NCBI GenBank assembly: GCA_051294375.1
Contig: CM119271.1
Location: 3,131,061-3,195,060, forward strand
Direction: 5' to 3'
DNA from: Paraspadella gotoi
Taxonomy: Eukaryota > Animalia > Chaetognatha
DNA length: 64,000 nt
Made by a program: the position numbers and the translations under genes. Positions 25,387 to 33,220 of this stretch are shown piece after piece; within the stretch, counting starts at the first letter, position 1, and each line of letters starts with the position of its first letter. Below the pieces are notes generated by a model. The model was given only the letters and a program-made list of their open reading frames with translations. It made no database searches and had not been told where the DNA came from.

Positions 25387-28300
25387 ATGAGATCAGCGTC
25401 GATTTTCGCGTGGGCGCAAAATCGTGTTGTCATAAAAGGCGTCACGTTGGACAAATACCTTTCGCGACTTTGTTCGTCGACTTCCGATTCGAAAGACAGA
25501 TTTTCAGATGAACAAAAGGATCTATCATCTCAAAAATCTAACTCCTTTCCTCCTTCCACCCTTTCCTCAAATAATTTTTCAAGTTTAAAAGACATTGAAG
25601 ACATTTTGTCGTCGCGCTCTACCAGCGTTGATTCCGAGAAAAAGATCGAGGCTTTGATCGCAGAATATGAACTATTGAAATATTGGGGTAGGTGAAGTAA
25701 AGGCATAAGAGTGGAAAAATTATGGCCTATGGCAACGGGAGGTTTGCCTGTGATAACCGGGACGCGGGGTATCTCACCAACTGGCGTAGGAGCTGCGGAC
25801 CCTCAGTGACCGCCTCCTGTCACTGGTATGTTTAAGCCAGAACCGGGATATCTCCGGATTGAACCCGGGACGCATGGTTGAAACGAGATAATTTAGCCTG
25901 CTCAGCCATTGAGACGAGGCTGAGGACGTGCTGCCAACGGCCTTGTTGAAATTATTTCATTGTTGCGAGATAATATATATGAGAGACGGCTCGAGGGTCT
26001 TTGGGATATCTTAGAAAAGTGGAAAAAGTAAGAAAGTAAGAGTTAGAATATACATATATATATAGATTAATTACCTATTCCGTAAAAAGCCTTAAAAATT
26101 TTGAAAGTAAAGTTTGTTAGTTGATAAAAACCCAAAAGGCCATCCCGTCCCTCGCCTAATGACGGACTCCATGTGGAACGCCCTCGGTTCTTGTCGTCTC
26201 GTCGCCGACCGTCTCCAAATCTACAACTTTTACGTTGGGAAGGAGGCGTTCGCCGAGCAGGCCGCCGATCGGAAGCGAGAGAAAAACCTGAAAAAAATCC
26301 ACAACTTGCGTCGAGTTCTTCGAGAAAAATTTGGTAATTCGTCAAGTGATTTTCCCCGATTTTGTCGTTTCCTTGTAGTTCTCGAGATTCGAACTATCAT
26401 TATTTGTTCATCGCCTATTTAGTATTAATCCGCATTTTTTTTCACCATTTAGGTGTTTTTATCGTTTTTAGTCCTTATCTATTAATCTTTGTACGCAACC
26501 TGCCCATCATTCGATATACTATGGCGGCTTTCGTATAGATTTATTAACTAAAAGAATTTTTTTATCAAATTGCGTAATACTCCCGGAACACAACGGTTGC
26601 TGGACAACAAAATATTTAAGTCGCGATGCGCGCCGTTTCGTCGAGCGAAGACGAAGGCGAGCCGGATTCGCCGGCCCCACCCAAATCGCCGCTACCGTCA
26701 GGCGTCGCCGCCGCAAAACCTTCCACGATTTCTCACGCTCGATCCTTGGGCGTCAGCCATGACGATGTAGACGACATCCACTCCAACGGAAGTGGCGAGA
26801 GCGCCTCTGGCGAGAGTGCCGCCATTCAAGGCGGCGGAGCCGTGAAACATCGCGTGAATGACGCTGGCAGGGGCAGCATTAGCCCTAGCCCCTCGGCATC
26901 GAGCGGCGCCGGGGCCACGGCCGGTGTCGCCGAGGAAGAGGATTCCGAGAAGCGGGAGGAGGAGCGACGTAAGCGTCTCCACTCGTACGTCTTCGTGAGC
27001 CGTTGTATCGCGTATCCTTTCAACGCCAAACAGCCGACGGACATGACTCGGCGCCAACCCAAAATCACCAAGCAGCAGTTCACGGCCATCAAGGAACGAT
27101 TCTTCGCCTTTCTCGAAGGGAAAACCAACATCGTCACCGACGAGGCTTTCAAAAACACCGTTTCTCACTACTACGAAGCGGTCTTGCAGTCCGATCGAGC
27201 CAAGAAGTTGGTAGAGTCCGGTGGAAGCTCGGATCACGACTTTCGTCAAGTCTTCCGCCATATCGTCGACAACCGAATCAACGCCTTGCCAGAGATCGAC
27301 GGTCTCAGCAAGGAAACGGTCATTTTATCCTGGCTCTCCAAATACGATTCCATCTATCGCGGCGACGAGGACCCTAGGAAGAGATTGCGACAGTCGAACA
27401 TGGCGCAGTCCGAGCTGGTGCTTTCAAAGGAACAGCTTTACGACATGTTTCAAGCCGTTCTTTCAGTGAAGAAGTTTGAGCATCAGCTGATCTTTAACGC
27501 GGCTCAGCTCGACTCACAGGACGAGCAGGCCGCCGTGATCAGAAGAGAGTTGGATAACCGGCTGAAGGATACGGACCAGCTAAAGAGAATGAGAAAGTTG
27601 CCCAAGTTTGTCGTCAAGGAAATGGAAAGTACGTACGTGGAGGAGCTGAAGCAATCAATTTCCCAGTTGATGCTCAACTTGGAAAACGTGCCAGTAAAGG
27701 GAAATCACGAGAGTAAATATTCCTTACAAAAATTGAAACGAGCGCAGACGTCTTCTTTAACCAAAATGGATCTCGAGGATCCCTCGGAGACTAGTCTGTC
27801 AAAAATGGACGTCCTGTTGGACTTTTCCCTGGAAGTCGTCATCTTGGAAGTTCAGGGACTCAAATCTGTCCCCGCCAGCAAAATCGTTTATTGCACCATG
27901 GAGGTTGAAGGCGGAGAAAAGTTGCAGACGGACCAGGCTGAAGCCGGGAAGCCGATGTGGGACACGCAAGGAGATTTTAAAACCAACCATCCCCTTCCCG
28001 TCATTAAGGTGAAGCTTTTAACCGAGACCTCTTCGATGCTAAGTCTTGATGACAAAGAATTGGGTCGGGTCACCATCAAACCGACGCCTTTCTCGCCGCG
28101 CGTGGCCGAATGGCACGGGATGCAGACGCCCAAGGGAATTCCCGATCAATTGAAGATTAAAATCATCGTTCGCATGGATCGAAAGCCAAACCTCAAACAC
28201 TGCGCGTGGCTATACGCCATGGGCAAATCTAAGTGGACCAAGTGGAAAAAGCGTTACTTTTGTTTGGTTCAAGTTTCTCAGTACAACTTTGCGATTTGCA

Positions 28301-31300: not shown

Positions 31301-33220
31301 CCCTACATTCCAAAAATGTTATAAAAAAATTCGTGCTTTCTTTTCTCTTTTTGGGTTAAGATTATTATAAATTAATGACAATTTTATTAACAAAAATATT
31401 TTTGGTGTCGTCCTTCTAGTCCTCTGCTAGTCTTGTTAGTGTATTCTTTGAAAGATGCATAATTTTAATTTAACGCTTTCGACAATCTCCTTTTTAAAAT
31501 TCCTTATTTCTCAATAATAAATATTTACAGTATTTTTTTTTATAAAATGTCTTCATTGTGATTTGGCTTACTTTTTTAATTCATGATTGATAATCAATCC
31601 CTTTTTAGCAAAAGAAAAAAGAATCTTTTAAGTCCCCCCACTCCCCGTTTTAAAACTTGTAATAATATCATTCTCGAAGGCTTCTCCGAATTCTCGCGAA
31701 TATTTAAGAGGTTTTCTTTAGGCACAGATTATCCAACGGAGTCATTGACTGACGACCAAGGCAATGCGTTTTCGGCCTCCCGACTCGTCGGACATCAGAT
31801 GCAAATCGTTTCGCGAGTTGACAAAGCGACGGTCAAAAGTCGGTCCGACCGCCAGCTCTACGGCCTACAGTTCGGTCAACCGCTGTTCTTCGACCTTCAC
31901 AGCTGGCGAAGGTGGGTTGATTTACTTAATTTATTTTTTTGGGATAGCGAGTGCGGAGAGATATATTTTCTGTTGCAGTTCTAATAGTTTTATTGACCTA
32001 TTTTACCACTAAAGTTTTATTTTTCAGGATTACAGAAAGAAATATGCTCTTTTTCGTTCGCGAAATGCAACGTATCTATCTACTCAACAAGATGCAAGTA
32101 AGATTTTTTTTTAAATGACGGTATAGCGGCCTAAACAATAACAACAACCACAACGATTATTAATCGTCGATTTAACGTTTATCTTCAAGTGGGAACCCTT
32201 TCAACTTCACCTCTGCAACTTTGACGAGTTCAACCCGGCGGCCAGGAAATTGCTCCAGCACCCGCACGTTCGCGACTATTGGTGGAACGTGACCAGCGAC
32301 TGCTGCAGTCAAGTGGTGGATAAAGATCGCCTCGTTTACTTGTCGAAAGTAAATCGAATCAATTCGATCTGCAATACATGATCCTTTTACATTGAAAGTT
32401 CTCTTTCCACTCCAGCGATCTCCCAATCGTCTTCGATCCTACAGTCACGAGGACGTTTACGTTTTCTGCGACGATCGAGGCGGCGGTGGCATCGAAGCCG
32501 CCGCCAAATTGGGATGCAGAACCGCCAGGTACATTTGAATGAATGCTAGTGAGCTCACTAGATTAGCCTATATCCTTTATTTTCAATTGGTTCGTGCGAA
32601 AAGTTCTTATGTACTTACGTAACGAATTTCTTACGTTCCCGAGTTCTCAAAATCTCTACTCCATATCCATCCCCCCCCAAAAAAAAAATTCAATTTCGAT
32701 CGCATATTTTGATGGCATATCCCACTTTGTTCCCTTCAGATTCGACTACCAGCGCTACTTTTCCCGCGTCCCCGTTTTTACCAAACTTCGCTGGGAATTT
32801 CAACAATTGCTCGACGCTCGAGACACCGACGGAAATTGGATGTACGCTTTCCGGTGCGTGGGCGATAGAGACGATGACTACGAGAGAGACAAAGACACAA
32901 ATGTCACCAAAAAAAACGTGAAACGAAATGTTCAATTTAACTTTCCGCGTTTCAGAAATTCCGCCTCTTCTAGCTCCGGTTGGCGCCCCAGATTCTTTCC
33001 AACCCTCGCCTCGATTACGGAGGACGAAGTTGTGACGGAAAACGACGACGACGCCTTGTTCTGTTCTCGCCACCGCGCCATTGAGAAGCCGGACCTTCGA
33101 CGGACGATTCGAGAGCTGAGAGAATTCCGAGCGGAGGCTTTGAAGCGAGGAAGCGAAGACGACGTCGCCAACGCGGAAGCGGCCTTGGCCGAGTTGGAAC
33201 TCAGCCTGCGGGGAAGATAA
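25387..33220 (+). CDS. TRMT10C: TRMT10C/MRPP1-like mitochondrial RNase P protein 1 (divergent SPOUT domain), spliced; ~5.4-kb intron at ~26334-31721 hosts CADPS
   Basis: N-terminal exons (presequence; [21 protein letters not shown]) join in the expected order to [48 protein letters not shown]. Confidence 0.72.
25728..25938 (-). mobile_element. Family-A-related element copy 4: tRNA-like Pol III head plus internally deleted twister remnant
   Basis: GGCC duplicated at 25724-25727 and 25939-25942; minus-strand A box TGGCTGAGCAGG (25897-25908) and B box GGTTCAATCC (25856-25865); shares CAGTGAC..GTCACTGAGGGTC and the ...CACAGGCAA..GTTGCCATA tail with family A. Confidence 0.8.
26626..30501 (+). CDS. 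CADPS: Calcium-dependent secretion activator (CAPS), intronless, 1291 aa, nested in the TRMT10C-like intron
   Basis: [25 protein letters not shown]2 domain ([21 protein letters not shown]); PH domain ([15 protein letters not shown]); [24 protein letters not shown] region; C-terminal [11 protein letters not shown]. Confidence 0.97.

Follow-up and report, generated by a model that had tools for sequence, protein, structure and literature searches.

An intronless CADPS gene in a coding intron of a TRMT10C-like gene within an operon-like gene run of the chaetognath Paraspadella gotoi, with possible release by trans-splicing

The window, by which we mean the whole stretch of 64,000 nucleotides of Paraspadella gotoi contig CM119271.1 that was analyzed, contains an open reading frame of 1291 amino acids, without internal stops, for the neurosecretory protein CADPS (CAPS, UNC-31). 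This frame (the guest) lies on the same strand as a gene (the host) resembling that for TRMT10C (mitochondrial RNase P protein 1), which acts in mitochondrial tRNA processing, and between its exons 2 and 3, and the eight host exons form a single open frame of 468 amino acids. The arrangement is that of the original prediction, and the letters that it named are in place: GT at 26334, AG at 31720-31721 and TTTAAG 5 nt 5' of the CADPS ATG (Table 1). With its 3.9 kb, the guest is almost three times as long as the host coding sequence and takes up 72% of intron 2, and its ATG is 292 nt from the host donor, close to the median intergenic gap of the surrounding gene run. The host ATG is 110 nt 3' of the stop codon of the upstream gene for the CCA-adding enzyme, and read-through from exon 2 into intron 2 reaches a stop after 194 amino acids. 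Host intron 1 carries a high-copy repeat at approximately 25730-25910, and the DNA runs have very high depth in bin 25736-26202.

Table 1. Features of the locus, in window coordinates (X7, contig taken as RNA-derived; HMM, profile of host homologues)
Feature	Coordinates	Strand	Basis or remark
Host exon 1	25387..25687	+	HMM positions 21-98; joint to exon 2 present in X7
Host intron 1, 451 nt	25688..26138	+	GT..AG joint in X7
Host exon 2, N-terminal domain	26139..26333	+	HMM positions 97-153
Predicted host intron 2, 5388 nt, phase 1, CADPS inside	26334..31721	+	In-frame join
Best acceptor-like site 5' of CADPS (T-run and AG)	26427..26452	+	173 nt before ATG
5-codon upstream ORF, sole ATG in CADPS leader	26521..26538	+	ATG scan, frame read
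TTTAAG	26615..26620	+	Score below all 96 cis acceptors
Intronless CADPS/CAPS ORF, C2-PH-MUN	26626..30501	+	Pfam; covered by X7
CADPS 3' region, 29% GC; candidate poly(A) signals AATAAA at 30555, 31227, 31516	30502..31721	+	Covered by X7
Host exon 3	31722..31911	+	HMM positions 175-215; downstream splice in X7
Host exons 4, 5	32028-32097, 32190-32348	+	X7 joints; HMM match for exon 5
Host exons 6, 7	32416-32528, 32740-32853	+	X7 joints; HMM matches
Host exon 8 and stop	32956-33220	+	X7 joint; open frame
Head-to-tail run of 22 genes (host counted, CADPS excluded)	1..61647	+	Pfam; starts and stops by eye

Contigs from three studies span the region: X1 covers 25906-35300, through CADPS and its flanks, X5 and X9 of another study cover 25899-30799 and 25899-30759, and X7 of a third covers 26138-31909 with no differing letter. 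X10 has one 50-nt match in CADPS and X11 has none. Among the long contigs listed for X5 and X9, none lies over approximately 30800-31590, as might be the case if CADPS had been pasted into the host by misassembly, but the spans of X1, X5, X9 and the letter-for-letter identical X7 speak against it, and this explanation, which the original prediction had raised against itself, is largely refuted and very improbable. None of the contig sets listed is recorded as RNA, and X7 is taken as RNA-derived on the sole grounds that it lacks 12 GT-AG introns that the DNA has. It is 10.5 kb long and joins the upstream gene, the host, CADPS, the host again and two downstream genes. A contig is not a molecule, so this bridging is no proof of one transcript; transcription nevertheless covers the whole stretch from host exon 2 through CADPS to exon 3. 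Six of the seven host introns are removed, with five GT..AG joints 3' of exon 3, and intron 2 (5.4 kb) is retained whole. The exon 2-exon 3 junction across CADPS is not seen in X7, the sole RNA contig, and contigs drop minor forms; we infer splicing of the host across CADPS.

An HMM of seven homologues matches six host-exon frames in order (profile positions 21-98, 97-153, 175-215, 243-297, 293-341 and 341-393). The 2357 six-frame pieces of the window contain no other match, and CADPS falls between profile positions 153 and 175. The host model is colinear with single-chain homologues across the junction (five proteins, BLASTP E values 3e-57 to 1e-44), and both halves keep a coding-type GC3 (0.51 and 0.62), so the joined host mRNA is probably still made. 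By homology, the two flanks of intron 2 are halves of one protein and join in frame, which speaks against the two separate transcripts that would have refuted the original prediction. Homology does not fix the exact joint, for which the donor may be 26334 or the in-frame 26346 and the acceptor 31721, 31727 or 31679. Alternatively, the insertion may have split the host into two cistrons, with a 194-aa N-terminal protein and a separate C-terminal one, whose start would be ATG 31583 or, once a leader had been joined to the exon 3 acceptor, Met192. The retention of intron 2 in the sole RNA contig, an in-frame ATG 47 codons 5' of exon 3 and six ENA proteins that start at the Met192 position are compatible with this arrangement. 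The N-terminal extension from that ATG is nevertheless intron-like (GC 0.33, GC3 0.35 versus 0.58), an upstream in-frame ATG also occurs in two of the six other host introns (the same ATG, 32609, in both cases), in-phase GT and AG are present where the homologues are continuous, and the six ENA proteins come from contigs of 1-2.4 kb and may be fragments. A split host therefore seems very unlikely.

Queries with single host exons gave no relevant match in Pfam, PDB, a word-indexed search or the ESM atlas, and a HMMER search with exon 5 gave 16 matches, two of which are unrelated repeats. PF01746, the Trm10 methyltransferase domain, was identified in 12 of the 13 homologues scanned, which align to the host model, and a domain of this type is assigned to the region of exons 4-8 (32028..33220). 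The homologue P0135 matches human TRMT10C over residues 138-418 (E value 2.6e-30) and TRMT10A with an E value of 7e-10. Of TRMT10C, TRMT10A and yeast Trm10, the first appears closest to the host by these comparisons, and host exons 1-2 match the N-terminal part of the homologues. It has Glu241 at a position where most homologues and the human protein have Gln, which we take to be a conserved active-site residue of TRMT10C, and lacks the Gly-containing loop before Asp324-325, presumably SAM-binding; because of these two differences it is designated TRMT10C-like.

The guest is a full-length CADPS in which the Pfam domains PF25341 (C2_CAPS, E value 4e-49), PF00169 (PH, 5e-11) and PF06292 (MUN, 2e-94) follow in order. 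Nearly all named animal CADPS proteins among the matches listed are 57-62% identical to it at 98-100% coverage of residues 110-1280, and its start Met is that of the relatives P0003 and P0123. A neighboring transcript has 12 RNA-confirmed introns in 3615 nt; at this density approximately 13 would be expected in the 3876 nt of CADPS, and because it has none (Poisson 3e-6) its intronless state is not due to chance. As the original prediction held, every complete neighbor has at least one intron, and CADPS is normally multi-exon, with 3-21 separate blocks in 13 of the 16 loci examined (of 80 fetched) compared with one block in the window. In the other three loci there is a single block, and their contigs, which extend little beyond the ORF, may be transcripts. 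Some neighbors, read by eye, have very long exons of about 1-2.5 kb. In a relative, the fragment P0122 may point to a CADPS with introns. None of the 80 metagenome loci comes from the clade of the query or carries a TRMT10C-like gene, and the phylogenetic tree was a quick, midpoint-rooted version of 34 rows, none of them chaetognath, xenacoelomorph or non-bilaterian. The retroposition proposed originally is consistent with the loss of introns, but no scars of it were recognized: the flanks contain only short AT-rich matches in place of a target-site duplication, and no A-run stands just 3' of the AATAAA sites. Such scars are expected to be missing through decay if the copy is old, and CADPS is likely an old cDNA-derived copy. 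A literature search, as judged by its listings, found neither an intronless CADPS nor an account of this locus.

The 22 genes of the run are separated by stop-to-ATG gaps of 110-1137 nt (median 311, with 6 of 21 below 250 nt), and three gaps are bridged by X7. Pfam matches were obtained for 18 of the 22, all on the + strand; of the stop-free frames, the scans took in 233 of 320 on the + strand and 48 of 175 on the - strand, with no match among the latter 48. An Rfam scan of the window gave no match. The run looks like an operon. This operon-like setting is a context absent from the original prediction. In excerpts of two reports on arrow worms, nearly half of the genes are described as trans-spliced and 18% as lying in operons (PMC12460157; PMC2481426), which are depleted of nervous-system and signalling genes (PMC12460157), a point against CADPS, a gene of this kind, as an operon passenger.

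Splice sites were scored against 93 donors and 96 cis acceptors of the window, mostly read by eye. Both sites of intron 2 are weak: the donor 26334 is at the 5th percentile (in-frame alternative 26346, 20th) and the acceptor 31721 at the 19th (alternative 31679, 26th). The TTTAAG pointed out in the original prediction has poor support as the acceptor. It was also rejected as a shared signal, with TTT[A/C/T]AG within 120 nt of only 3 of the 21 other gene starts. The site at 26452, at the 68th percentile of the cis acceptors, is the better candidate for trans-splicing, although 102 of 1000 shuffles score at least as high and it is not significant alone. A leader at 26452 would leave the short upstream ORF in the CADPS 5' UTR. 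Across the run, acceptor-like AGs are present in 16 of 21 intergenic gaps. The opposite strand has them in 7 gaps and shuffled sequence in 11.8, and 5 of 200 shuffles attain 16; with a stricter score this enrichment is gone (6 of 21 gaps; 48 of 200 shuffles).

In the reading that we prefer, with a probability of roughly 0.5, the intron-free CADPS rides the operon transcript and is freed by spliced-leader trans-splicing in competition with the weak host splice sites. CADPS, an old cDNA-derived copy in coding intron 2, would be transcribed as a passenger on one polycistronic precursor with two possible fates. In route (a), the weak sites of the 5.4-kb intron would be joined, giving host mRNA and discarding CADPS. 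In route (b), an acceptor within the 292 nt 5' of the CADPS ATG, for which 26452 is the best candidate, would receive a spliced leader. Cleavage and polyadenylation 3' of 30501 would then complete the CADPS mRNA, and the host message of that molecule would be destroyed. Each shared transcript must then likely become either host or guest message. The weak intron-2 sites, together with a good unpaired acceptor 5' of CADPS, favor the passenger model, and in C. elegans an SL2 cassette engineered into an intron is reported to act in this way (PMC11753634). Expression from the host transcript, as first proposed, fits the course of X7 through exon 2, CADPS and exon 3 and the operon-like setting; the leader itself was not seen, and none of the loose ends listed, which are those of contigs only, sits at a CADPS acceptor. 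A short leader could be clipped during contig building.

Two other routes from a shared transcript can be weighed against this model. The host might be cis-spliced first, and leader addition and polyadenylation might then release CADPS mRNA from the removed intron; each transcript would give both messages without competition. The acceptor-like site and the three AATAAA lie wholly within the intron, and both genes are intact, which this route allows at no cost. Yet a direct sign of it is absent, and introns, once removed, are as a rule quickly debranched and degraded. The polymerase also reaches the CADPS signals earlier than the host acceptor, which favors route (b) over rescue from the excised intron; we consider such rescue unlikely. 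Alternatively, host exons 1-2 might be cis-spliced to 26452, with CADPS as a downstream ORF, or to the AG at 26620, which would give an in-frame host-CADPS fusion of 1458 aa. The 119-nt intron from 26334 to 26452 is of normal size, and alternative splicing from shared exons has a precedent in the tick ChAT/VAChT locus (PMC7524744). This route would predict a splice from exon 2 into the CADPS leader, but neither joint is in X7, from which 12 other short introns are removed. Exons 1-2 are coding, eight of nine possible joins stop after 169-239 aa, P0003 and P0123 begin at the same Met, and 26620 is in the weakest-scoring site class, all of which makes a shared exon improbable.

A less probable but serious reading is that of an ordinary nested gene, in which a neuron-specific promoter belonging to CADPS itself lies in the 292 nt 5' of its ATG or in host exons 1-2 or intron 1. 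Intron 2 would then be retained in X7 because the host intron is spliced slowly, and long introns often stay in RNA assemblies. Same-strand intronless guests are common in Drosophila, where guests tend to be tissue-specific (PMC5174743), and neurosecretory genes such as CADPS are of a kind that is reportedly underrepresented in arrow-worm operons (PMC12460157). Set against this, the 292 nt are about the median gap of the run and contain no TATAAA, and an operon polymerase would traverse CADPS regardless. With its own promoter, CADPS would be an ordinary, though extreme, same-strand nested gene.

Same-strand intronless nesting is already known from Drosophila and from VAChT in intron 1 of ChAT. 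In the accessible text on Drosophila, approximately 29% of nestings are same-strand, less rare than the original prediction implied in calling nested genes mostly antisense, and 71.5% of the same-strand guests lack introns (PMC5174743). The present locus shares the minority orientation, the intronless guest and the expected interference, but fly guests are small and their hosts large with long introns (PMC5174743), whereas CADPS is large and deeply conserved. VAChT is likewise a same-strand, single-exon synaptic-vesicle ORF, with two alternative products from the transcription unit; there, the first exon and the pathway are common to both genes and the route is cis-splicing (PMC7524744). Here, the intron is in the coding region, the genes are functionally unrelated, X7 has no shared-exon splice and the host is within an operon-like run. 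The locus would pit cis- against trans-splicing on a single precursor that encodes two intact and unrelated products, which would make the competition directly measurable by junction and 5'-end reads.

In chaetognath spliced-leader operons, too, housekeeping genes share one orientation and are very closely spaced, and leader addition resolves them (PMC12460157; PMC2481426). The longest reported, under a 250-bp rule, has nine genes, and nervous-system genes are depleted (PMC12460157), unlike the run of 22 genes with CADPS inside. The excerpts of these reports do not describe a cistron within the intron of another cistron (PMC12460157; PMC2481426), the words "nested" and "intronless" do not occur in the main text of the former as accessed, and a literature search found no case of a large neuronal gene within a coding intron of a gene that belongs to an operon. 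The locus suggests a route of operon growth in which a cDNA copy can do without a promoter as long as it has an acceptor and a poly(A) site, and would test how a neuron-restricted gene can be regulated within a housekeeping operon. A bolder and less probable reading is a natural gene-trap switch, in which CADPS is promoterless and its cell-type output is set purely by cis-splicing over it versus trans-splicing into it, or by rescue from the excised intron; this would amount to an operon nested in a gene of an operon and would open housekeeping operons to neuronal genes. The C. elegans cGAL gene trap is similar in that an intronic cassette is expressed off the host transcript by trans-splicing at the expense of the host, but it is a synthetic knock-out into which a cis acceptor and stop codons were built (PMC11753634), whereas the TRMT10C-like host appears functional.

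The uninterrupted 1291-codon frame originally predicted as CADPS is open throughout and contains CADPS/CAPS domains (see table), and the GT at 26334, the AG at 31720–31721, and the TTTAAG five bases before the ATG were all found in the sequence. Residues 110–1280 are 55–62% identical to named animal CADPS proteins, with 98–100% coverage; closer relatives are two unnamed ENA proteins (75 and 73% identity). Two relatives, P0003 and P0123, share its first N-terminal residues, so ATG 26626 is the true start. A quick tree places the query with P0002 and P0003 in a clade (support 100) separate from arthropods, deuterostomes, and the lophotrochozoans that were sampled.

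Features of the CADPS locus and the surrounding window
Feature	Position	Strand	Basis or remark
CADPS/CAPS ORF	26626–30501	+	1291 codons open; C2, PH, MUN domains
AATAAA	30555, 31227, 31516	+	sequence, 3' of CADPS ORF
High-copy repeat	25730–25910		host intron 1
Collagen gene	17661–18962
~290-nt repeat, three copies	1976–2269, 13282–13555, 45015–45308		intronic; 69–86% alike
MITE-like element	6385–6729		intronic
GC-AG donor	16418		by eye
SUI1-domain gene	33412–33952		two exons
Gene ending the run	62326–64000	−	convergent

By homology, the exons on both sides of CADPS are those of one predicted host gene. The eight-exon model gives a single open frame of 468 residues in which the large intron is in phase 1, and six of the seven introns have been removed in X7, an RNA-derived contig. 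A search with exon 5 found 16 proteins, PF01746 being present in 12 of the 13 scanned; one homologue, P0135, is a far closer match to human TRMT10C than to TRMT10A. The model aligns with five homologues in a single block that continues from exon 2 into exon 3 (E 3e-57 to 1e-44), and this continuity speaks against flanks belonging to two separate transcripts. An HMM of seven homologues matches the frames of exons 1, 2, 3, 5, 6, and 7 in order, with no match outside these frames across the window. The predicted exon 2/3 junction ranks second among 40 open donor-acceptor combinations (278.6 versus 279.1 bits), and homology therefore places the junction region rather than the exact base. That the insertion split the host is very improbable, the in-frame ATG at 31583 lying in sequence of intron-like composition.

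The homologues are only ~30% identical to the host, in which, within 32028–32528, Glu replaces a conserved Gln and the methyltransferase site lacks its Gly-containing loop. We take this Gln and loop to be active-site features of the TRMT10C family, and their loss is the reason for the name TRMT10C-like. Together with the low identity, these changes would fit a reduced requirement in a lineage with mitochondrial loss of tRNA genes (PMC5470650, available text). On its minus strand, the intron 1 repeat has, by eye, a motif resembling a tRNA B box.

The nesting is real, and misassembly is unlikely. Contig X1 covers 25906–35300 and may be the source of the window itself. Contigs from two further studies span parts of the region: X5 and X9, both of one study, reach from host exon 2 into CADPS, with no long contig listed at ~30800–31590, and X7, of the other, covers 26138–31909 with zero differing letters. 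X7 (10.5 kb) comprises an upstream gene, host exons 1–2, the whole of intron 2 with CADPS, exons 3–8, and two further genes. The exon 2/3 junction across CADPS is absent from X7, which is no proof of absence because contigs lose minor forms and X7 is a contig, not one molecule. A shared exon of the ChAT/VAChT type, with host exon 2 spliced to the CADPS leader, is very improbable, as X7 lacks that splice though 12 other introns are gone.

We favor, at roughly even odds, CADPS as a passenger cistron of an operon transcript, with host and CADPS mRNAs as alternatives. A polymerase passing along the operon would transcribe CADPS every time; cis-splicing across the weak intron 2 sites would give host mRNA, and leader addition with polyadenylation within the intron would give CADPS mRNA, breaking the host message of that molecule. 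Ranked against 93 donors and 96 acceptors from the window, the intron 2 donors are weak (26334, 5th percentile; 26346, 20th) and the acceptors 31721 and 31679 fall at the 19th and 26th percentiles. TTTAAG scores under all 96 acceptors; one RNA-confirmed acceptor, 26138, likewise has no pyrimidine tract, so TTTAAG, though an improbable CADPS acceptor, could still serve as one. The top acceptor-like site upstream, 26452 (68th percentile), was equaled in 102 of 1000 shuffles. Of the 21 intergenic gaps, 16 hold such a site, versus 11.8 in shuffles (16 reached by 5 of 200) and 7 on the opposite strand; at a stricter cut-off the count is 6 of 21, reached by 48 of 200 shuffles, and the excess is not significant. 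No AATAAA was found in the 292-nt leader region. The main rival, a promoter of its own for CADPS, is doubtful, and release of its mRNA from the excised host intron is improbable.

CADPS is normally multi-exon: 13 of the 16 metagenome loci examined (80 fetched) are split into 3–21 blocks, and the three single-block contigs are scarcely longer than the ORF. Around CADPS, 3615 nt of X7 have lost 12 introns, a rate at which the CADPS ORF would be expected to hold ~13. P0122, a fragment 91% identical to P0002 across 108 residues, starts at an intron position of three arthropod-like loci and ends in unalignable residues; from its protein sequence, we read it as a probable exon of an intron-bearing CADPS from a relative. 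Neither a target-site duplication nor a poly(A) remnant can be seen around CADPS, and its GC3 is similar to that of the host (0.66 versus 0.58); any retroposition is therefore old. Alternatively, the introns may have been lost in place, with a DNA-level move.

Intronless guests nested on the strand of their host form a known class; in Drosophila melanogaster, antisense nestings make up 71.3% of the total, and among same-strand guests 71.5% lack introns (PMC5174743, in part). The classical case is VAChT within ChAT intron 1 (PMC7524744, in part), and the proposed route has been shown to work with an engineered SL2 cassette placed in an intron (PMC11753634, in part). The present locus differs in its large conserved neuronal guest, coding intron, operon-like host, and almost absent flanking space. 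A full-text search, with most subscription journals outside its reach, found no description of such a locus.

The host is one of 22 consecutive, mostly housekeeping, head-to-tail plus-strand genes over 62 kb (base 1 to 61647). Pfam named 18 and homology the host; we take the other three to be DPM1-like, FAM120-like, and an LDL-receptor-repeat membrane protein. Gaps from stop to ATG are 110–1137 nt (median 311). Reportedly, nearly half of arrow-worm genes are trans-spliced and 18% lie in operons, which are depleted in nervous-system genes (PMC12460157 and PMC2481426, available portions). This run exceeds the nine-gene maximum reported there under a 250-bp rule, but just six of its 21 gaps fall below 250 nt.

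Beyond the last of these genes lies a convergent one on the minus strand that has, by eye, zinc-finger-like Cys/His motifs; it ends the run, and Pfam gave no match at E 0.01. The collagen, presumably of the membrane-associated type, seems to have a membrane anchor and carries a basic motif resembling a cleavage site; its entire Gly-X-Y region lies within a single ~985-nt exon, making it a second intron-poor non-housekeeping gene of the run. The apparent GC-AG donor belongs to a purple acid phosphatase gene, and the MITE-like element has 41-nt terminal inverted repeats, 90% complementary. The SUI1-domain protein, whose intron is seen in X7, has an Arg-rich N terminus and is possibly mitochondrial.
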